A stretch of 15,972 bases of DNA from Candidatus Izemoplasmatales bacterium (lineage in GTDB: Bacteria > Bacillota_I > Bacilli_A > Izemoplasmatales > Hujiaoplasmataceae), in NCBI GenBank assembly GCA_050177605.1, contig JBFXGX010000034.1, forward strand, positions 1-15,972, written 5' to 3'. The position numbers were made by a program, and so were the translations under genes. Position 1 is the first letter of the stretch. Every line of letters begins with the position of its first letter. The notes under the pieces are model-generated. The model had not been told where the DNA came from. It did no database searches and worked only from the letters and a program-made list of their open reading frames with translations. Below, piece after piece: positions 1,543 to 15,964 of the stretch.

Positions 1543-1572
1543 AAAAAAGCGCGTTTTACTTTTCGCGCTTTT
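1543..1572 (-). terminator. Intrinsic terminator overlapping the GGDEF stop codon
   Basis: AAAAGCGCG...CGCGCTTTT inverted repeat (1545-1572) with a U-run on the minus strand. Confidence 0.7.
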
Positions 1573-2692
1573 CGAGTTTTAATTGATTCATTTGTTTATT
1601 ACTTTTTTTTGTATGATATAGTTTTCGGTCAACCGAAATGTACAGTCTATCAATAGTGTCTCCTGATTTCGAATACTCACAACCATAACTGAATTTAACA
1701 TTCCTGCATATTTCATCTTCTAAAGAAAATATATAATGATATAGATTGTCAATAATCTCATCTACGGTGCATTGATGTTCGATTACACATATAAACTCAT
1801 CTCCACCTAATCTAGCGGCCATCTTGCTTGGATAGATTGCGGCCACAAGTCCTTTTCCAAACTCACGCAATACTTCATCACCTTTATGGTGCCCGTAGGT
1901 GTCATTAATTTCTTTAAAATGGTCAATATCAATCGATAATAACTTAAAATTTGCTTGATTATCGATTCGCTCATTAACATAGTTTTCATAGCTTGAGCGA
2001 CTAAAAAGATGGGTTAAGTGATCAATTTCTCCATTGGTCGATTCAAAAAATATATAGATGACCAAAAGGCCGAACCCGATGGATGTCCAGGATAGATACA
2101 AACGTGTGTTTAACATCGATAAAAAAGTTCCAAGCATCGGTGTAAAGAAAAATGCAATAAATAAGAGGTATTGATGGTTTCTAATTCTTTTACGATTTTG
2201 AATCGCTAAAACAATAATATATACGTACGCCAAAAACAAAACAATATAGTGAATCCACTGATAATCTCCAGAAAAATAGGCATTAGTTCCTTTTTGAACA
2301 CCAAAATAAATTGGATAGAACAAATTGATGACTAACAATACAAAAGTAATAATCGTTGGAGTCATATAAAACCATCTTTTTTTTAGCCTTTTATACTGAT
2401 GAAAAATAACATAATCCATATAGTTTAAGAACATACCAACAATTAAAGGCGCGATAAGAATAAGGAGAAAATTAGAAGCATACTCGAGAAAATAAGCGCC
2501 TGGATAAGTTTGAACATCAAGAATCCAAGTAAGCGGCTCTAATAATACTGCAATGGCAGTAAGAATTAATGTATGATTTAAAAAATTCCGCCGTACACTG
2601 ATTACTTTGGATCGAATGAGTATGGTTCCAAATAATATCATTAACATTAGAAATGCATAAATATTCAATTGAAATTGCACCAAATAGTCCAT
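1556..2692 (-). CDS. Membrane-bound GGDEF-domain protein (putative diguanylate cyclase)
   Basis: Roughly seven hydrophobic N-terminal segments, then DIDHFKEINDTYGHHKGDEVL and ARLGGDEF motifs. Confidence 0.92.
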   Translation of the reverse strand: MDYLVQFQLNIYAFLMLMILFGTILIRSKVISVRRNFLNHTLILTAIAVLLEPLTWILDVQTYPGAYFLEYASNFLLILIAPLIVGMFLNYMDYVIFHQYKRLKKRWFYMTPTIITFVLLVINLFYPIYFGVQKGTNAYFSGDYQWIHYIVLFLAYVYIIVLAIQNRKRIRNHQYLLFIAFFFTPMLGTFLSMLNTRLYLSWTSIGFGLLVIYIFFESTNGEIDHLTHLFSRSSYENYVNERIDNQANFKLLSIDIDHFKEINDTYGHHKGDEVLREFGKGLVAAIYPSKMAARLGGDEFICVIEHQCTVDEIIDNLYHYIFSLEDEICRNVKFSYGCEYSKSGDTIDRLYISVDRKLYHTKKSNKQMNQLKLEKREK

Positions 2693-2724: not shown

Positions 2725-2851
2725 TGTTGTTTATCAATTGCATCAATTATAACGAAAAAGTAAAGATTTAGAAAATAAAAAAGCTCCCTTCATCAGAGTG
2801 GTATTTTAGTATACCATATCTCCAACTTTTGGAAGCTATTTCAATCTTTGA

Positions 2852-2926
2852 TGGCAGGGGTGACAGGATTCGAACCCGTACAAACAGTTTTGGAGACTGC
2901 CGTGCTACCGTTGACACCACACCCCT
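2852..2926 (-). tRNA. trnW: tRNA-Trp (anticodon CCA)
   Basis: Minus strand AGGGGTGTGGTGTCAACGGTAGCACGGCAGTCTCCAAAACTGTTTGTACGGGTTCGAATCCTGTCACCCCTGCCA: acceptor AGGGGTG/CACCCCT, anticodon loop CTCCAAA, T-loop TTCGAAT, encoded CCA end. Confidence 0.97.
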
Positions 2927-2945
2927 AGAAAAAGAGTCTACTAAT

Positions 2946-2974
2946 ATTATTAATGATTTACGTCTATTTGTCAA
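2946..2974 (-). promoter_or_regulatory. Sigma70/SigA-type promoter of tRNA-Trp
   Basis: TTGACA (2974-2969), 17 nt spacer, AATAAT (2951-2946). Confidence 0.7.
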
Positions 2975-2996
2975 GGAAAATAAGACGTAGGTGATG

Positions 2997-3026
2997 AAAA
3001 AAGAAGGCAAATATCCATCGCCTTCT
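2997..3026 (-). terminator. Intrinsic terminator of the V/A-ATPase operon
   Basis: AGAAGGC...GCCTTCT stem followed by a U-run on the minus strand, right after the atpD stop. Confidence 0.7.
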
Positions 3027-5104: not shown

Positions 5105-6859
5105 TTACTTAATTTGTTTAAAGGTATCATCAATCAATGTGAAGTAGTCATCAAACTTCTCTATTTCATTGTTGGCGACATCATATTTCATTTTTATGAC
5201 TTTTTCAAACATTCCAGTAGCTTGTAATAAACTGAAGGCTTTTCCATCAGCTAAAACAAGTTGTGATTTCTTATATAAATATAAGATGACATCCATCATT
5301 CTTAATTGCTTTTGAAGAGGAACATACGTATCTTCTTTATGGAATGCGTTTTGTTGTAAGAAACCAACACGTATCACTTTTGATATTTCAATAACAAGTT
5401 TTTGATCATCTGGAAGAACATCACTACCAATGAGTTTCACAATTTCCATTAGTTTATTTTCTTCGGCGAGTAACGCCATAATCTTTTGTCTGTTTGTTAA
5501 AAAACGAATATCAATATTTTTATTAAACCATTTTGTTAAATCTGTAATATATTCTGAATAACTTAAATTCCAATTGATTGCGGCGTAGTGTCTTGCATAG
5601 GCTAGTTGTTTATCAAGCGCCCAGAAACAGCGTACGAAACGTTTTGTATTTTGAGTGACTGGTTCTGAAAAGTCAGCCCCTTGAGGAGATACCGCCCCAA
5701 TAACTGTAACACTACCGACAGTATGATTTAAGTTTTCCATGTAACCTGCACGTTCATAGAATTGCGAAATTCTACTTGGTAAATACGCTGGAAACCCTTC
5801 TTCTGCAGGCATTTCTTCCAAACGACCACTAATTTCTCTTAGCGCTTCTGCCCAACGTGAAGTAGAATCCGCCATAACAGCTACATGATATCCCATGTCA
5901 CGATAATATTCAGCAATCGTTAATCCTGTGTAAATCGAAGCTTCACGAGCAGCAACTGGCATATTGGATGTATTCGCAATGAGCACTGTTCTATCCATTA
6001 AAGGACGATTTGATTTCGGATCGATAAGTTCTGTCATTTCTTCCAAAACTTGAGTCATTTCATTTCCACGTTCACCGCATCCTACGTACACAATAATATC
6101 AGCATCACACCATTTTGCGAATTGATGTTGCATCATTGTCTTTCCTGTGCCGAATCCTCCAGGAACTGCAGCAGTTCCTCCTTTTGCGATTGGAAAAATA
6201 GTATCAATAATTCTTTGTCCACTAATGAGTGGAACAGAAATAGGTAATCTTCTATAAATTGGTCTAGCTGTTTTAATTGGCCATTTTTGTTGCATAGATA
6301 GTTTATGCGTTCTACCTTGTTCATCTTCAACTTCAACGAGCGTTTCGGTAATCTTATATTCACCGCTCTTTTTCAAGTTCACTACTTTTCCCTCAACACC
6401 GGACGGAATTAACATTCGATGTTCAATGAGTGGAGTTTCTTGTGTCGATGCATAAGTATCTCCAGGTTTCACAACCTGACCTAATTCAACTTTAACCACT
6501 ACCTGCCAGGTTTTTGATGTGTCAAGCGGTTCTACATCCGACCCCGCAGGAATAAATGCGCCCTCTTTTTCTGCTATTGAAACAAGTGGACGCTCTATCC
6601 CATCAAAAATATTGGTTAGAATTCCTGGCCCTAACGTAACTGATACTGGATTTCCACTTGCAAAAACAGGTTCTCCTGGTTGAAGCCCTGTCGTTGATTC
6701 ATATACTTGAATGGTAGTGAAATCTTTTGTGATTGAAATGACTTCACCCATTAATTTTTGATGTCCTACATAGACCATTTCTAGCATTGAAAAAGACACG
6801 GTATTGTCAACTTTGACAACCGGTCCATTGATAGAGAAAATCTTAGCTTGGTTCATCAT
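5105..6859 (-). CDS. atpA: V/A-type ATP synthase catalytic subunit A
   Basis: Walker [67 protein letters not shown]. Confidence 0.98.
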
Positions 6860-6875
6860 ACCACCTCACTTTAAA

Positions 6876-7481
6876 TTATTTCTTAATAAATAAGTTTGAC
6901 TTCTCATAGAACCATTGTTTTTTGCTTTCAAGAATCGAATCGAGAGTTTCATCAAGTTCAATTCCCTTTTTTTCACATCCAGCTAAAAAACCACCTAATT
7001 CTATTGAAGCGGTTTTTTCAATTTTGAATTTACCTAAAAATTCCTTTTTAATGACATCTTCAATTAAGTTGTCGCCGTTCTTAATGTAGAACACGATCTC
7101 ATCATGTTCAAAAAGAGGATTTAATTTCTTAACTTTGGAAGAAAGAAGCTCCTTATATTCATCTGTTTGTAAATAGGATTGTAATTTCTTTTTGACTTCA
7201 TCAAAAACGCTTTGGAATAAATCTTGTCTTCGAATCATTAATTCTTTGGCGTTCTCAGTTAATAGTTTATTCATCTCATAACTATGATCTGTCTTCAAAT
7301 CTTTTAGTTCGAGTTCTAGGTCATGATTGATGCTTTCTTTTAAGTCTTGATCTATTTTTGCAATTTCAGCACTTTTTATCGCGTTGATTTCTTTTGTTAG
7401 TTCATCAATTTTCTTTTGAGATGCCTCATGTATTTCTTTTTCGAAATACTTCAGCAATTGTTCAGATGATAAATATTCCAT
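6876..7481 (-). CDS. atpE: V/A-type ATP synthase subunit E
   Basis: Coiled-coil N-terminus, C-terminal LGGFL...IELDETLD pattern, position between F and A. Confidence 0.85.
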   Translation of the reverse strand: MEYLSSEQLLKYFEKEIHEASQKKIDELTKEINAIKSAEIAKIDQDLKESINHDLELELKDLKTDHSYEMNKLLTENAKELMIRRQDLFQSVFDEVKKKLQSYLQTDEYKELLSSKVKKLNPLFEHDEIVFYIKNGDNLIEDVIKKEFLGKFKIEKTASIELGGFLAGCEKKGIELDETLDSILESKKQWFYEKSNLFIKK

Positions 7482-7490
7482 TCTTCCACC

Positions 7491-7799
7491 TCACAGTTTC
7501 ACGCCGATAGCTTCACTTACATAACGGTCAATCGCTTTTCCGATATCTGTAGATCCATGTCGATCTGGAATCTCGACAATCAGTGGCTTCGGCTGTTTGA
7601 GTTTTAATTCAGAGACAACATCAGGACACAATTCAACTAATTTTGTCGTGATTAAAACAATACAGATTTCAGGGTCCTGTATTGCTTTTTCAAGTTGCTC
7701 GAGAACAGCGTTTCGGTCATGAACTACCACGCCTTCGATGCCCGCAAGCCTCATGCCAACTTGAGTATCAATATTGTCGCTAATTAAATAAAATTTCAT
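7491..7799 (-). CDS. atpF: V/A-type ATP synthase subunit F
   Basis: ISDNIDTQVGMRLAGIEG, PLIVEIPD, VSEAIG; 102 aa; operon context. Confidence 0.95.
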   Translation of the reverse strand: MKFYLISDNIDTQVGMRLAGIEGVVVHDRNAVLEQLEKAIQDPEICIVLITTKLVELCPDVVSELKLKQPKPLIVEIPDRHGSTDIGKAIDRYVSEAIGVKL

Positions 7800-7820
7800 T
7801 TAGATCACTTCTTTTTTTTA

Positions 7821-8258
7821 CTACAGTTTGAAATAGATTAATGCAGAGATGATAAGACCATAAATCGCAACCCCTTCACCTAAGGCAACGAAGATTAATG
7901 ATTTACCAAAGTTCTTCTCGTTTTCAGAGAATGCACCAATTGCAGCAGGAGCTGCAGCTGCTACGGCAATACCAGCACCTAACGCACTTAACCCTGTAGA
8001 TAAGGCAGCACTTAAGAATCCTAAACCTTGTGCGGTTGTACCCGCAATACTAACAGTGGTCGTTGCAGCAAAGACATGTACATTTGAAAACATAAAAATC
8101 ATCGTAAATGCAATAAATCCAAAGAAACTAGCCACATGTGTAATTAAGCGATTTTTCGCAACTTTTTTAGATGTTTTTCCTTGAAAAACTTTAATCAGTG
8201 GTAAAGAGATTAAAATTAAAAATAGTAATGGTAATAAAATTTCAGCTGTGTTTAACAT
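7821..8258 (-). CDS. atpK: V/A-type ATP synthase rotor subunit K (c/proteolipid)
   Basis: Gly/Ala-rich hairpin GLSALGAGIAVA...FVALGEGVAIYG with the conserved Glu; hydrophobic N-terminal extension. Confidence 0.93.
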   Translation of the reverse strand: MLNTAEILLPLLFLILISLPLIKVFQGKTSKKVAKNRLITHVASFFGFIAFTMIFMFSNVHVFAATTTVSIAGTTAQGLGFLSAALSTGLSALGAGIAVAAAAPAAIGAFSENEKNFGKSLIFVALGEGVAIYGLIISALIYFKL

Positions 8259-8282
8259 AATAAATCCTCCTAAAATATTTTT

Positions 8283-10202
8283 TTATTTTAATGTTTGAAA
8301 TGGCACTCCGTCACCTTCATAGTAACGAGAGAACATTTCGTAAAATTCCAAACGTAAAACCTGGATTCCAACAATCATACCTTCTAGAGCCATAACGAAT
8401 AAGTTTCCGAAGATAAAAATGATTGTTGTAATAATAGCATTGGATGACATTCCCATTACTGTAAATACAACGAGCATCATTGAGGCATGTGATAGTAAGA
8501 ATCCTCCAACCCTCATAAATGACATTGTATTTGTAATATAGGATAAAACGACTTCGAATAATTCAAAGAATCCTTCAACAAAGAATCCGCCAAAGCCAGT
8601 TGGAAAAGCCTTATGTCCTTCCAATTTTCTTTCGAGTGGTTCCTTTAAGAAAATTAAGAGTAATGGCGCAACAATAAAGGTTACAATGAGTAGTGGCGTG
8701 AATGCTTTGACACTAAAAATCATCGTTAAGACGATTCCTACAATAATATATCCATAAAACAAGAAACCGGATATACCATTTGGAGAAAAGAGTACATCCG
8801 CATACTTTTTCTTTTTGAAATTGGTATAGGTATTAATAATAATCGATATCAAAATAAGGATGGCACCAATCGCGACTGCAGAGAGCAATAGATATAATGT
8901 CATATTTGAATCCAGAACACGAATAGGTAAGAAGCCAATTCCTATCTTTTCATAAAGTGTCAACAAGATTTCTTCGTTTCCAAACACTGAACCAAACAAC
9001 AATCCAAAGAAAGCTGAGAACAAACCAATTCTCATCCCAACTTCTCCTAATTGAAGATGTTTCTTTTTATAGAAATAATATCCAATAAGTGCCAGTAATA
9101 AACCTTGTCCAAAATCCGCAAACATAATTCCAAATAAAAGCGAATAAGTCAACGCAACAAATGGGGTAGGATCAATTCCTCCATATTTTGGTATCCCATA
9201 CATCTCAACAAACATCGAGAAAGGACGAGTAAACCAATTATTCTTAAGTTTCGTAGGAGGTAGCAACCGTTTATCGCTTAACGCTGGCCGGAAAAGCACT
9301 TCTACTTCTTTTAAATCTTTATACTTTTCTATAATGATTTTTTCATCTTTTTGTTCGATAAATCCTGTGATTGTGAATTTATCGCCAAGACCAACAACAT
9401 ATTTCTTTGCATCATAGATTTTATTTAACATTAATAACTCTGATTTGATATGAGAGATATCATGGTGCGCTTCTTTCAGCACTTCAAAAAGAGATTGTTT
9501 TACCTTTTCAAGATGTGATGTTGTAAGTTCTATCTCTTGAATTAATTTTACTTCGGCATCTTCTGGTGTCCCGTGCACAAAGTCTGGAATGTGAATTCGT
9601 TCAAAAAACAAGGATGAGAAAATATTATCAACTTCTCGTTCGTAATCATTGGAGGTAAAATACATACACCAACTATAGTTTTTATCTACACTAAATGACT
9701 TAAAGATAAACGGTCGATTACGATAGAATCTTAATTTTTCAACACTGTCCATTGGAAGTCTTCCTACACGAGAAACAACATAATCACAAGAAAACACATC
9801 ATCAAGGGAAATATCTAAACTATTAATGTTTTTCACTTGAATGAGCGCATCTTGATATTTTCGAACTAAGTCAAGTGTTACCTTCTTTTGATCAAGCAAC
9901 GCTGTTAATTTATGATGAGTAGATTCAACGTACTCCTTCATTTTATCGAGTGAATCATCAATTTGGCACATTTCTTGCACTTCGATATCAATATTAAACT
10001 CGGCCTCAATCTCGAGGATTTCTTTCAATATTAAATTACATGGATTATCAGAAGAAAATGATGTTAATCCATGAACTTTATCAACAAACTGCGTTGCTGG
10101 AACTGGGTGAATATCATGAAGTTCCACAAATCTAGCAAGGACACGATCAAGATAATCGATGTTTGATGTAATATTCACAAGTCTGGTTTTTGCGATTGCC
10201 AT
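8283..10202 (-). CDS. atpI: V/A-type ATP synthase subunit I (a), full length
   Basis: Soluble N-half, PPTKLKNN, YGIPKYGGIDPT, FGIMFADFGQG, essential-Arg region NTMSFMRVGGF, LRLEFYEMFSRYY. Confidence 0.96.
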   Translation of the reverse strand: MAIAKTRLVNITSNIDYLDRVLARFVELHDIHPVPATQFVDKVHGLTSFSSDNPCNLILKEILEIEAEFNIDIEVQEMCQIDDSLDKMKEYVESTHHKLTALLDQKKVTLDLVRKYQDALIQVKNINSLDISLDDVFSCDYVVSRVGRLPMDSVEKLRFYRNRPFIFKSFSVDKNYSWCMYFTSNDYEREVDNIFSSLFFERIHIPDFVHGTPEDAEVKLIQEIELTTSHLEKVKQSLFEVLKEAHHDISHIKSELLMLNKIYDAKKYVVGLGDKFTITGFIEQKDEKIIIEKYKDLKEVEVLFRPALSDKRLLPPTKLKNNWFTRPFSMFVEMYGIPKYGGIDPTPFVALTYSLLFGIMFADFGQGLLLALIGYYFYKKKHLQLGEVGMRIGLFSAFFGLLFGSVFGNEEILLTLYEKIGIGFLPIRVLDSNMTLYLLLSAVAIGAILILISIIINTYTNFKKKKYADVLFSPNGISGFLFYGYIIVGIVLTMIFSVKAFTPLLIVTFIVAPLLLIFLKEPLERKLEGHKAFPTGFGGFFVEGFFELFEVVLSYITNTMSFMRVGGFLLSHASMMLVVFTVMGMSSNAIITTIIFIFGNLFVMALEGMIVGIQVLRLEFYEMFSRYYEGDGVPFQTLK

Positions 10203-10229: not shown

Positions 10230-11210
10230 TTATTTTAGACAAGATTTACTAGTAATCTTCTTTGGTGCTCTTAATCTTTTATCACTATCAGCTGGTCGAA
10301 TTTCAACCTCAACATTAGAGATATCTGAAAATAATGGCCGTAAAAATTCTTCCTTCTTTTCGTCGATAAAACCAACAATGGAGAATCTTGTGCCCAAACA
10401 GACAACATATTTCTCCGATTGATATATTTTTTTCATTACTTCAAGTTCGCTTTTCATACGATTAATAACAAGTTCGTGTTTTTGAAGATATTCATCAAGT
10501 AATTTTTTTGATTTATCAATCTGTTTTTTTGTTGTGGATAATTCTTTTTCCAACATACCTAAAGCTTCTGCGGGCGTCCCGTGTACAAAATCCGGTATAA
10601 AAACTCGTTCAAAAAGTAACGATGAAAAGATATTATCCACCGCTCTTTCATATCCATTCGTTGCGAAATACATACACCATGAGGATTCCTCGTCTTCAGC
10701 AAATGATTTAAATATGAAGGGTGTATTATGATAATATTCTAGTTTTGCAACACTATCTAAAGGTAGTTTACCGACGCGCGCATTCACATAATCACACTCA
10801 AAAATATCATCAAGACTAACATTGAGCGTCTCTAAATACCCTACTTGTTTTTTTGCATCATCATATTTAGAATAGAGGGTTTCAAGCATAACCAATTCTT
10901 CGTTATATGATTGAATATGCAGATGCACTTCTTTGATTTCTTTTGATATGTCATCGAGTGTATCATTAATACCCTCTATTTTTGAAGGTTCAAAAGATGT
11001 ATGACATTCTTTTTCAATTTCGCTTAGTTCTTGTAATAATGGTGTAGCGTTGTCTTTGGAAGACAAGGATTTACTGCCATGAACTGTTTGAACGATTTTT
11101 TCTGATTCAACAAGTTCAATACAAGGAAATGATGTGATGCGTTCAAGCACTTTTGAAACATCATCCATGTAAGCAAGTATATTCACAAGTTTCATTTTAG
11201 GCTTTGCCAT
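10230..11210 (-). CDS. Paralog of the subunit I N-terminal soluble domain, lacking the membrane domain
   Basis: Aligns by eye with the atpI N-half (SLDDIFECDYV/SLDDVFSCDYV; PFIFKSF; WCMYF; VDNIFSSL; IPDFVHGTP) and ends near the PPT linker; GGAGG RBS. Confidence 0.88.
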   Translation of the reverse strand: MAKPKMKLVNILAYMDDVSKVLERITSFPCIELVESEKIVQTVHGSKSLSSKDNATPLLQELSEIEKECHTSFEPSKIEGINDTLDDISKEIKEVHLHIQSYNEELVMLETLYSKYDDAKKQVGYLETLNVSLDDIFECDYVNARVGKLPLDSVAKLEYYHNTPFIFKSFAEDEESSWCMYFATNGYERAVDNIFSSLLFERVFIPDFVHGTPAEALGMLEKELSTTKKQIDKSKKLLDEYLQKHELVINRMKSELEVMKKIYQSEKYVVCLGTRFSIVGFIDEKKEEFLRPLFSDISNVEVEIRPADSDKRLRAPKKITSKSCLK

Positions 11211-13945: not shown

Positions 13946-13984
13946 GAAAAAGAAAAAATAAAAGAACCCCCAGGGAAGGGGTTC
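13946..13984 (-). terminator. Intrinsic terminator after the TPR regulator
   Basis: GAACCCC-7nt-GGGGTTC stem followed by a long U-rich tract on the minus strand. Confidence 0.85.
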
Positions 13985-14001: not shown

Positions 14002-15297
14002 TTAAAGGATGTAATCTGCTGGTTGGGAGTCCGAAGGAAGTTTTGTTTGTTTCTTGTTGTTCGTTCCTTCGAATAAACTTTTTGCTAATTCTTGAATGTA
14101 GCTACCTCTTAATGCATAACCAGGCATTTGTTCTTCTGCAGTCCTGTATGCTTTGTCGAGATTATCTTCCTTATTAAAGTAAGAACGGAAGAATTGGATA
14201 AGACTTAAATACTCATAATTATATTTTTTGTCTTTATGAAGCAATTCTAACTCCACAGTGTAGTTATTTGCTTCATCGATGCGATTTAATTTATATAGGC
14301 AATAGGTTTTCATGATAGACTCGTAATCTGGCTTTTTCAAAACGCCATCGAGAATTATGTTATAGTGTTCAAGTGCTTCAGAATAATTTTCCTCCATAAG
14401 TAAGCAGTCTGCATAGTTCAGTTCTGTTGCACGAAGTAGTTTATCAAGCTTACTATAAGAAATATATACCAAGTTTTTCCTTAATAATCGTTTTGCTTCA
14501 TCAATATTGCCAAGTTTCTTATATAGTGCAGCAATATTCACTCTACAGAAAACAGCACGTACATAATTTAGTTGTTCTTCTAGTTTTGGAAGTGCTTTGT
14601 TCGCATAAATTAATGCGTTAATAAAATCACTTATTAAAGAATAACTAAATGAAATATGATAATTTGCAGTTGGTTCTAATTCTGGATAATTCACAGCTAA
14701 ATAAGACGTGAGTCGTGCATAATGAACAACATTTTCGCGATCTTTTTCGATTGCGGATTTGGTACACATAAAATCATAATATAAGAAACGATGTTCACTA
14801 GACATTTTATCCACGAAATTGGATAAAAATGCGATGGCTTCATTTTGTTTCTCACGGTGCATTTGTCTTGAATAGTTTATGTCGGTAATATAGAAGATTA
14901 ATTGAGCTAAATAAAACTCAATCATTAATATCGAATTTTCATAGAGGGCTTTCTTTTCATTAATACTATCAAAGTGCTTTTTGACCTCATCAGATTGAGA
15001 AAAACAAACAGACGTATAAAAACGGCTAAAGTTTTGGTCCAATTCTTCAATAGTGCTTGGATCAATTTTAGTCTGAATATTAAGATAATTAGCCATTTTG
15101 TCAACCATCTCTTCATAACCGATAAACCCTTTTAATTGGGCTCTTCGATAATTAGAAGTTGCGATTTTGGCTGACTCGTTGATTTCTTTCTGTGTTACTT
15201 GGTCCTTCTTTTTTAAATACTCAATCATGACAAGTTTGTCAAAATTTTCTTTAAAATAGAACGCACACGAAAAGTCATAGATAGTCATGAAAATCAT
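14002..15297 (-). CDS. Tetratricopeptide-repeat protein with putative N-terminal XRE-like HTH (RRNPP-like peptide-responsive regulator)
   Basis: N-terminal KKKDQVTQKEINESAKIATSNYRR resembles an XRE HTH. TPR-like helices include FINALIYANKAL, VNIAALYKKLGNIDEAKRLLRK and NYADCLLMEENYSEALEHY. True start may be ATG 15288 (better spacing from AGGG). Confidence 0.75.
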   Translation of the reverse strand: MIFMTIYDFSCAFYFKENFDKLVMIEYLKKKDQVTQKEINESAKIATSNYRRAQLKGFIGYEEMVDKMANYLNIQTKIDPSTIEELDQNFSRFYTSVCFSQSDEVKKHFDSINEKKALYENSILMIEFYLAQLIFYITDINYSRQMHREKQNEAIAFLSNFVDKMSSEHRFLYYDFMCTKSAIEKDRENVVHYARLTSYLAVNYPELEPTANYHISFSYSLISDFINALIYANKALPKLEEQLNYVRAVFCRVNIAALYKKLGNIDEAKRLLRKNLVYISYSKLDKLLRATELNYADCLLMEENYSEALEHYNIILDGVLKKPDYESIMKTYCLYKLNRIDEANNYTVELELLHKDKKYNYEYLSLIQFFRSYFNKEDNLDKAYRTAEEQMPGYALRGSYIQELAKSLFEGTNNKKQTKLPSDSQPADYIL

Positions 15298-15360: not shown

Positions 15361-15819
15361 TTAGATTGAGAATGCGTGAGTTGGGTACATGAATTCTGGC
15401 TCGTCATCATCTGCTACAAATTGGAATCCTTTTCCTGGATACATGAATTCTGGTTCATCGTCATCCGCTAGTAATTGGAATCCTTTTCCTGGGTACATAA
15501 ATTCTGGTTCATCATCATCTGCTAGTAATTGGAATCCTTTTCCTGGATACATAAATTCTGGTTCGTCGTCATCAGCTACGAATTGGAATCCTTTTCCTGG
15601 ATACATGAATTCTGGTTCATCGTCATCAGCTACGAATTGGAATCCTTTTCCTGGATACATAAATTCTGGTTCGTCGTCATCAGCCACGAATTGGAATCCT
15701 TTTCCCGGATACATGAATTCTGGTTCATCATCGTCTGCTGCATTAACAACTGCTAGTGATCCTGCAAATAAAAACGTAAATAAAACTACAAATAAAGATT
15801 TCACAAATAAATTTTTCAT
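15361..15819 (-). CDS. Secreted precursor with Sec signal peptide and seven tandem peptide units (putative multi-copy signalling propeptide)
   Basis: MKNLFVKSLFVVLFTFLFAGSLAVVNA (basic N-region, hydrophobic core, V-N-A cleavage site), then 6x ADDDEPEFMYPGKGFQ(FV/LL) and ADDDEPEFMYPTHAFSI; RBS AGGGGG. Confidence 0.88.
   Translation of the reverse strand: MKNLFVKSLFVVLFTFLFAGSLAVVNAADDDEPEFMYPGKGFQFVADDDEPEFMYPGKGFQFVADDDEPEFMYPGKGFQFVADDDEPEFMYPGKGFQLLADDDEPEFMYPGKGFQLLADDDEPEFMYPGKGFQFVADDDEPEFMYPTHAFSI
15364..15738 (-). repeat. Coding tandem repeat, 54-bp unit, about 7 copies
   Basis: Head-to-tail 54-bp units with no spacers; differences are mostly at third codon positions of the minus-strand frame. 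Confidence 0.97.
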
Positions 15820-15896
15820 AAAATTGCCCCCTGAATGTTTTTAATTTTTTTTGTTGTACATGACTAAAAAAACTGTGTGTTCTATGATTAATTACC

Positions 15897-15964
15897 ATAT
15901 TATCACACCATTCAAGGTTTGTAAATATTCTTAATTGATAATATTTTACATTATTATTATACCA
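15897..15964 (-). promoter_or_regulatory. Candidate promoter region of the precursor gene
   Basis: Extended -10 TGGTATAAT at 15964-15956, a second candidate TTTACA...TGTGATAATAT at about 15925-15897, and an imperfect inverted repeat at 15920-15950. Confidence 0.45.

Follow-up and report, generated by a model that had tools for sequence, protein, structure and literature searches.

The question raised by the stretch of DNA analysed here, 15,972 nucleotides of contig JBFXGX010000034.1 from Candidatus Izemoplasmatales bacterium (hereafter the window), is what function is served by a protein that repeats one short acidic peptide seven times in varying codons. The protein is encoded by an open reading frame (ORF) on the minus strand (15361-15819, 152 amino acids). 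The ORF is interpreted here as the multi-copy pheromone precursor, or propeptide, of a putative RRNPPA-type quorum-sensing pair in Izemoplasmatales, with the adjoining gene encoding its cytoplasmic receptor, and we give this interpretation a probability of roughly 0.7. Four of the five features of the published RRNPP signature (PMC10075063) were found in the pair, the exception being the size of the propeptide.

The repeat array and its conserved peptide core

Tandem Repeats Finder detected a single strong array in the window (15382-15729; period 54 bp, 6.4 copies, 91% matches, score 549). With translation and unit alignment, the array was delimited to 15364-15738 on the minus strand and comprises seven units (6 x 54 nt + 51 nt), namely units 1-6 of 18 amino acids each (15738-15685, 15684-15631, 15630-15577, 15576-15523, 15522-15469, and 15468-15415) and unit 7 of 17 amino acids (15414-15364), followed by the stop codon (15361-15363). 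An earlier sequence-only reading of this DNA had noted that the peptide ADDDEPEFMYP is invariant while its codons vary, and the alignment bore this out: the peptide was identical in 7/7 units, all of the listed codon alternatives were present (GCA/GCT/GCG, GAT/GAC, GAA/GAG, TTC/TTT, TAT/TAC, and CCA/CCG), and the DNA of every unit was distinct, with a smallest pairwise difference of 2 nt among units 1-6. The replacement of FV by LL in units 4 and 5 was likewise the sole amino-acid change within units 1-6, the linker being GKGFQFV in units 1-3 and 6 and GKGFQLL in units 4-5, and unit 7 ends in the tail THAFSI. Matches of Pfam and NCBIfam families to the propeptide (e.g., Ribosomal_L24e) were rejected as spurious, being inflated by the repeats with no single stretch passing alone.

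Within the 33-nt core, 8 of the 33 columns vary, all of them at third codon positions, and the minimum of nine substitutions needed to explain them are all synonymous, as that reading had expected of a count over aligned units. Random single-base changes on the core sequence are synonymous in a fraction of 0.16 (kappa 1) or 0.27 (kappa 10), and the probability of nine synonymous changes out of nine by chance is 7.5e-8 or 7e-6, respectively.

Relatives were available for comparison through the neighbouring receptor gene, whose product has 32 close homologues (49-100% identity), one of them named as coming from an Izemoplasmatales metagenome-assembled genome (MAG). A locus scan with an alignment of 31 receptor homologues, taking one genome per species, yielded 12 loci, mostly from Izemoplasmatales or Mycoplasmatota MAGs. 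In 10 of the 12, the receptor gene was immediately preceded by a repeat ORF; these include L004 and L008, which are cut by the contig start so that the signal-peptide end is not visible. The contig of L003 starts within the receptor gene, and L010 is described below with the promoters. A first search with the propeptide found only two relatives, and a profile of nine propeptides found 14 proteins, comprising the same two and 12 others, one of which (P0103) is the propeptide of L012.

Across 66 units from 11 arrays, anchored on EPE[F/I], the minimal within-array changes were counted for each codon column. Positions -2 to +5, D-[D/P]-E-P-E-[F/I]-x-Y, showed 51 synonymous changes and one non-synonymous change, and the core positions free of the anchor (-2, -1, +4, and +5) showed 33 and one. 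Outside this segment the constraint was lower, with 13 synonymous versus 8 non-synonymous changes at positions -4 and -3, 11 versus 4 at position +6, and 10 versus 34 at the linker positions +7 and +8. No repeat period was skipped inside any of the 11 arrays, which means that anchoring on EPE[F/I] concealed no degenerate unit. The Ala preceding the core, the Pro after it, and the GKGFQFV linker were each lineage-specific. Purifying selection on the peptide, both inside the window array and in the relatives, is therefore strongly supported by the substitution pattern, and judged from the same counts selection acts on about 8 of the 18 residues, D[D/P]EPE[F/I]xY, rather than the whole unit. The claim that every copy is under purifying selection as peptide consequently stands for this core of about eight residues only, the linkers changing freely. 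Freely drifting cores in orthologues had been named as an outcome that would speak against selection; the cores were found to be held while the linkers drift, which clearly favours it.

Reading frame and authenticity of the array

The minus frame had also been taken as fixed by the synonymous pattern. It is indeed the coding frame, but the pattern alone does not fix it: relative to the unit consensus, codon differences in the sense frame were 15 synonymous and 4 non-synonymous, and one antisense frame, which shares its wobble positions with the sense frame, scored 12 and 5. The sense frame is fixed because it alone is free of stops in 11/11 arrays, each antisense frame being broken in most of them, and because it is headed by a signal peptide and an AGGGGG site and is conserved in orthologues. 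By inspection, the signal peptide is of the Sec type and 27 amino acids long (15739-15819, minus strand), consisting of MKNLFVK with its two Lys, about 17 hydrophobic residues, and VNA, after which the following Ala opens unit 1; the N-terminus is kept in relatives, and the Sec signal that RRNPP(A) propeptides carry is accordingly present. The ribosome-binding site AGGGGG, read from the sequence (15827-15832, minus strand), lies 7 nt 5' of the ATG and is aligned with AGGAG or AGGGG in the relatives. An antisense ORF of 151 amino acids (15389-15844, plus strand) was considered and rejected, its frame being interrupted in 8 of 10 related arrays; it is open in the window because a stop-free unit is repeated.

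These observations bear on the possibility that faulty assembly produced the array or the differences between its units, or that the repeat is non-coding with an accidentally open frame. Related loci do show assembly trouble, with N-runs in 2 of the 12 and contig ends in 3 of the 12, the window itself ends 153 nt from the propeptide gene, and an otherwise identical protein with two copies could be a collapsed assembly. This objection touches copy number only and not the existence of the array, since the same architecture occurs in 11 independent assemblies with the sense frame alone open in each, and the variation is limited to synonymous sites, which errors would not respect. An artefact is accordingly very improbable.

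Probable turnover of the array and copy number

The differences between units further bear on the age of the array, which had been described as no recent product of slippage. The mean pairwise codon difference of the core between units was 3.76, compared with an expected 4.44 +/- 0.54 (P = 0.11) for random draws from the window's own codon usage; core codon choice is thus near random draws, and the units are not fresh copies of one another. The codons of GKGFQ (GGA AAA GGA TTC CAA, 15 nt) are identical in units 1-6 (15415-15738; P < 0.0002 under codon draws). In addition, codons ending in A come close to fixation throughout the array (CCA 13/14, GGA 12/12, and GAA 13/14), and synonymous variation falls mainly in C/T-ending two-fold codons and in Ala. 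Our guess is that codon preference combined with the homogenisation of units by unequal recombination may account in part for the uniform GKGFQ DNA and the A-ending codons. The description of the array as no recent slippage product is upheld for the units by their synonymous differences, and only partly for the array as a whole, given its uniform linkers and labile copy number.

Linkers are uniform within an array and different between lineages, with forms such as xKVIQL, DRRFL, KEV, and xxLRGGVE in the relatives, and unit length ranges from 13 to 18 amino acids across arrays, with longer linkers in the propeptide protein P0104. The terminal units are distinct, as with THAFSI in the window and PNPVFSC or PKPVFSC common to L005 and L006. 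Copy number is seven in the window; among the loci it is one (L012), five (L007 and L011), six (L005), eight (L002 and L006), or nine (L009, with one unit degenerate), with lower bounds of at least nine in L001, where an N-run lies inside, and at least four in L004 and L008, both cut at the contig edge. The further propeptide proteins have one to four copies. One of them, P0102 (62 amino acids, two copies), equals the window propeptide minus units 2-6 and is otherwise identical, representing either a real contraction in a close relative or a collapsed assembly. Taken together, the lineage-specific linkers, the distinct terminal units, and the two-copy variant fit an array that turns over with its core fixed. 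Repeats disturbed assembly in 5 of the 12 related loci, two having N-runs in or beside the gene and three having contigs that end in or near the array. For this reason, and because the otherwise identical two-copy protein exists, the copy number of the window should be read with the caveat that it is either labile or exposed to assembly error.

Fate of the repeat protein

Propeptide length in the relatives ranges from 55 to about 200 amino acids, and in the single-copy members (55 and 63 amino acids) the core lies near the C-terminus, as in classical propeptides. These short members are informative about a different explanation, in which the product is an intact secreted or surface repeat protein, acidic and cation-binding, adhesive, or a protease decoy, and the neighbouring gene encodes its regulator or an unrelated protein. 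The signal peptide and the highly acidic, periodic sequence would suit such a protein, and copy number varies in many surface repeat proteins as it does here. Nevertheless, the single-copy members leave only about 25-35 residues after signal cleavage, too little for a structural repeat protein; the constraint is confined to a core of 7-9 residues, with spacers drifting freely; neither an anchor motif nor a transmembrane segment was seen by inspection past the signal peptide; and a Rap/NprR-like receptor is encoded beside the gene in 10 of the 12 loci. This explanation is therefore considered unlikely.

Precursors with several invariant cores and variable spacers are also typical of several classes of ribosomally synthesised and post-translationally modified peptides (RiPPs). 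The ORF could accordingly be a multi-core RiPP precursor whose cores are modified by an enzyme encoded elsewhere and set free as a natural product, with the neighbouring protein as regulator or peptide chaperone, and in some clades a Cys directly after the core Tyr would agree with this. That Cys is absent in the clade of the window, no tailoring enzyme is encoded in the conserved neighbourhood of the pair, and the presence of a Sec signal peptide instead of a leader that is bound in the cytoplasm speaks against most RiPP routes. A RiPP precursor is thus less likely still, and a pheromone precursor is preferred to both alternatives.

A candidate Rap/NprR-like receptor next to the propeptide gene

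The neighbouring gene (14002-15288, minus strand) encodes a candidate pheromone receptor with a Rap/NprR-like tetratricopeptide repeat (TPR) fold according to Pfam, AlphaFold2, Foldseek, and hhalign. It begins 72 nt after the propeptide stop on the same strand, as expected of the directly neighbouring genes of an RRNPP(A) pair, and its 428 amino acids, counted from a conserved start at 15288, fall within the 250-500 amino acids expected of such receptors. Pfam matched TPR_12, TPR_2, and TPR_1 at E values of 1e-6 to 5e-4, all just below the curated cutoffs (TPR_12: E 1.1e-6, 29.2 bits versus a cutoff of 30.1). The AlphaFold2 model, built from the 31-sequence alignment, was all-helical with a predicted local distance difference test score of 87 and a predicted template modelling (TM) score of 0.80. 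Foldseek against PDB placed Rap phi3T, RapF, apo RapI (TM 0.64/0.75), NprR, RapJ, pLS20 Rap, and phi105 Rap at the top (E 9e-7 to 9e-5), and matches 1-12, 14, 15, 18, 20, and 33 were Rap or NprR, followed by generic TPR proteins. The Pfam matches, the model, and the best fold together indicate TPRs of the peptide-binding type that RRNPP(A) receptors possess.

The receptor family is very small: in a profile search of 1.84 billion representative proteins, 61 matches reached E <= 1e-3, of which 13 reached <= 1e-10 and 4 reached <= 1e-30. From the 61 matches, 34 proteins (about 390-470 amino acids, mostly long or near full length) were scanned after fragments, long proteins with many TPRs, and the representative of the family itself had been set aside; 18 of these distant relatives carried an N-terminal Pfam HTH_3 domain and two also RapH_N. 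A bridging alignment (A4) was made of 16 proteins with a helix-turn-helix (HTH) and TPRs, drawn from the matches of the receptor family's own profile. In hhalign, the receptor family (A1) matched A4 with probability 100 and E 3.4e-42 over 343 columns, starting in the HTH region, and A4 in turn matched NprR (7e-50) and RapF (1.6e-36) among PDB sequences, with Rap proteins at 1e-36 to 1e-23. Homology of the receptor to the RRNPPA superfamily is thus linked indirectly, through A4, and the two steps of profile matches indicate a divergent relative of the NprR/Rap branch. The receptor does not appear to belong to the NprR subfamily proper, since no NCBIfam or PDB sequence match to NprR was obtained and the propeptide is encoded upstream of the receptor.

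Residues of about 21-72 form a probable divergent XRE-type HTH (15073-15228, minus strand), as suggested by invariant columns and by hhalign to the relatives. T32, Q33, and K34 as well as S45, R48, R49, A50, and Q51 are invariant across the receptor family, and receptor residues from 24 onward were aligned by hhalign to the HTH_3 region of the relatives. The N-terminus is probably an XRE-type HTH on this sequence evidence. Prediction of a complex between the receptor alignment and propeptide residues 118-152 gave a score of 0.02 (mark 0.32) and, run without controls, counts neither way on binding.

Probable co-transcription, promoter-like elements, and a putative operator

No terminator lies between the propeptide and receptor genes, and a strong intrinsic terminator-like hairpin with a T-run (13964-13984, minus strand), 18 nt past the receptor stop, closes the two-gene unit. 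The two genes are therefore probably co-transcribed. Upstream regions were aligned across 8-9 loci (alignments of nine and of eight). A promoter-like site, P2, lies at 15897-15925 (minus strand) and consists of TTTACA, a spacer of 17 nt, and TAATAT preceded by TG, as in an extended -10; ATATTTACA is invariant in 9/9 aligned upstream regions. Farther upstream, the promoter-like element P1 has the pattern TTGnCA, 17 nt, TGnTATAAT, of which TGnTATAAT is invariant or almost so in the alignments of nine and eight; in the window only its extended -10-like element TGGTATAAT is present (15956-15964, minus strand; a consensus match only), the -35 lying beyond the window end. Since 15,972 bases is also the length listed for the longest contig that carries the receptor, the window appears to be an entire contig. 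Its end, 153 nt upstream of the propeptide start, cuts the conserved promoter region and narrowly misses the place of the relatives' first dyad, a sequence described next.

An operator-like dyad, ATATTA-N8-GAATAT (15925-15944), abuts the -35 of P2 and has one mismatch to the family consensus ATATTC-N8-GAATAT. Relatives have one or two copies of the dyad in the propeptide upstream region, one immediately 5' of the first -35 and another adjoining the second, the two being 63-64 bp apart in L001, L002, L007, and L011; 14 of the 19 matches with at most one mismatch in 95 kb of loci fall in these intergenic regions. The copy at 15925-15944 corresponds to the second and is the only such match in the window. 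The conserved putative recognition helix together with the conserved dyad suggests autoregulation through this putative operator. Locus L010 (3480-4005) has the receptor and lacks the propeptide gene and proximal promoter, so that the receptor directly follows the distal promoter in an 'eavesdropper'-type arrangement. The adjoining 95-amino-acid membrane gene in L010 contains two in-frame TAG codons where other loci have Trp and Tyr.

Core variants and the receptor tree

Between lineages the core varies only at D/P, F/I, and M/V/A, resulting in four variants, DDDEPEFMY, DDPEPEFAY, DDPEPEIVY, and DDPEPEFVY, and the additional propeptide proteins show a few changes at the acidic edge of the core and one change of A to E. 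Four clades can be told apart in the receptor tree, and each corresponds to one of the four core variants; support is full for three of them and 96/95 for the DDPEPEFVY clade, which is unresolved inside. Each core variant arises once on the receptor tree, which fits co-divergence without proving co-evolution.

Points against the pheromone interpretation and the proposed mechanism

Several observations weigh against the proposed pair and have to be set beside the evidence above. Core variant and receptor co-vary along single branches only, and shared descent alone could explain their match. The receptor profile searched against PDB sequences found no Rap or NprR and only two insignificant TPR matches, NCBIfam gave nothing meaningful on the receptor, and Pfam gave only the sub-threshold TPR_12. 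For the N-terminus, direct Pfam matches were weak (HTH_3 at E 0.088 in one of six N-termini and HTH_24 at 0.13 in another), and Foldseek on a model of the 72 N-terminal amino acids returned mostly XRE/HipB-type matches that were weak, with E above 2. No further convincing dyad was found in the window, where matches with two mismatches were at chance level (6 found versus 2.7 expected). In no case does the core form the very C-terminus, so that freeing each peptide would take two cuts, and many proteases cut poorly where Pro follows Tyr. The export, import, binding, and regulation of the predicted peptide are steps that we infer. Moreover, the propeptide, at 152 amino acids, exceeds the 10-100 amino acids of the RRNPP signature (PMC10075063). 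It does so because of the repeats alone, and in a passage of the same source the 100-amino-acid limit is presented as a working limit that allows for intragenic duplications.

If the ORF is indeed a pheromone precursor, the precursor would be exported by Sec, and extracellular proteases would cut on both sides of each core, whereby a single round of translation could supply as many as seven identical acidic peptides, each about 7-10 residues long. These would then be re-imported and bind the TPR groove of the receptor, and binding may alter the contact of the receptor with the dyad ATATTC-N8-GAATAT at its own promoter, resulting in autoregulation. The purpose of identical copies would be signal dosage and not diversification. 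Copy number would shift, and linkers would stay uniform, through unequal recombination between units, while selection would purge changes in the core.

Genomic setting

The pair occupies a conserved chromosomal neighbourhood, with a seven-transmembrane (7TM) GGDEF protein, a protein of about 420 amino acids without a Pfam match, and the 95-amino-acid membrane protein upstream, and a PHP phosphatase downstream; in the window, L001, and L002 the downstream side additionally has an HMA protein and a V-type ATPase operon. Phage collections gave no match, and plasmid collections gave one weak match (23% identity). The 7TM-GGDEF diguanylate cyclase was found three genes upstream of the pair in 6 of 7 loci scanned, an ABC transporter being there in L012, and a different membrane GGDEF protein lies at the far end of the window (1556-2692, minus strand). 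A link between the peptide signal and cyclic di-GMP is conceivable. In the single-copy locus L012, a DncV-like nucleotidyltransferase and a ThiF-family protein (5660-8318) stand in place of the PHP gene, which looks like a defence insertion of the cyclic oligonucleotide-based antiphage signalling system (CBASS) type.

In the V-type ATPase operon of the window, a 326-amino-acid protein (10230-11210, minus strand) is encoded beside the 639-amino-acid subunit I (8283-10202, minus strand), with 45% identity to the cytoplasmic N-terminal half of the latter over 319 residues (E 3e-88), and on this similarity it is interpreted as a stand-alone paralogue of the subunit I N-terminal domain. Its counterparts in L001 and L002 are ORFs of 325 amino acids. 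Rfam detected only a tRNA in the window, a tRNA-Trp (anticodon CCA; 2852-2926, minus strand) between the GGDEF gene and the ATPase operon, and an overlapping ORF of 80 amino acids (2768-3010) is probably spurious.

Implications

Within the open-access literature searched, no paper was found that contains the core-motif strings or that links Izemoplasma or Mollicutes-type taxa with RRNPP systems, and the matches for Izemoplasma with quorum sensing appeared unrelated, as judged by title and abstract. The receptor subfamily is invisible to direct family searches. Moreover, most propeptides of this family exceed the 100-amino-acid limit of the main detection tool, so such screens may systematically miss multi-copy precursors. 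According to passages in PMC10868615, Izemoplasmatales are non-sporulating, lack peptidoglycan, and live freely in aquatic and sediment habitats. The chances are about even that the following all hold together: that this is the first RRNPPA-type peptide quorum sensing in Mycoplasmatota, situated at a conserved chromosomal site of the free-living, wall-less Izemoplasmatales; that its polyprotein precursor can carry nine or more identical acidic pheromones, with copy number as a rapidly evolving output dial; and that no more than two or three core positions separate the four pherotypes. If it is a working quorum-sensing system, peptide communication reaches a peptidoglycan-less, non-sporulating, free-living lineage related to mycoplasmas. 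The locus also offers a clean natural case of selection on each copy of a short peptide within a tandem array, in which the pattern of selection outlines the probable signalling peptide without experiment, and the core peptides, receptor, and conserved dyad are small enough for direct testing.

Comparison with known systems

Among the closest known systems is NprR-NprX of the Bacillus cereus group, an RRNPPA system in which a receptor of about 420-430 amino acids has TPRs behind an N-terminal HTH, a domain that is probable here, and is encoded next to a propeptide exported by Sec, as is predicted here. NprR structures are among the best fold matches of the receptor, and NprR is the best natural match of the bridging profile A4. 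The pair described here shows no direct sequence match to that system, and its propeptide gene comes first, probably in one transcript with the receptor gene. In NprR systems the propeptide gene lies downstream of the receptor, and the NprX pheromone is SKPDIVG, compared with the acidic D[D/P]EPEFxY core here. Repetition itself has precedent: passages in PMC5199041 report internal duplications in phr and nprX genes, and passages in PMC9765709 report that 17/17 atypically large NprR-associated propeptides are repeated and that the tandem pheromones in propeptides of AimR, NprR, PlcR, and Rap can number up to six.

Similarly, the Rap-Phr systems of Bacillus and of phages phi3T and phi105 include propeptides with several identical or near-identical pheromones, and Rap phi3T is the top fold match of the receptor. 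Part of PMC11343458 describes duplicated Rap-Phr pheromones as active and freed by specific extracellular proteases, and cites up to eight identical copies. In contrast to the receptor here, which is probably DNA-binding, Rap lacks an HTH and acts on protein targets, with phr downstream of rap. In addition, the relatives here reach at least nine copies, and the locus is chromosomal, with conserved synteny and no match in the phage collections.

PlcR-PapR of the Bacillus cereus group also resembles the pair in having an HTH-TPR regulator that is activated by a re-imported peptide, the HTH being probable and re-import a prediction here. Pherotypes of PlcR-PapR differ at few peptide positions and track receptor clades, and the mature PapR heptapeptide, ADLPFEF, is similar in its acidic-Pro-aromatic character to the core here. 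PlcR differs in being shorter, papR lies downstream and is usually single-copy with a C-terminal pheromone, and neither a sequence match nor a top fold match to PlcR was obtained for the receptor.

Precursors of fungal mating pheromones such as the yeast alpha-factor share the signal peptide, the tandem identical copies, the excised spacers, and the variable copy number. This likeness is one of analogy only, the alpha-factor being eukaryotic, processed within the secretory pathway, and sensed by a surface receptor; the parallel with fungal precursors is drawn in a passage of PMC5199041. Multi-copy pheromone propeptides are already established, and what is new in the proposed pair is the lineage, the receptor subfamily, the upstream order with probable co-transcription, the acidic core, and the presence of at least nine copies.

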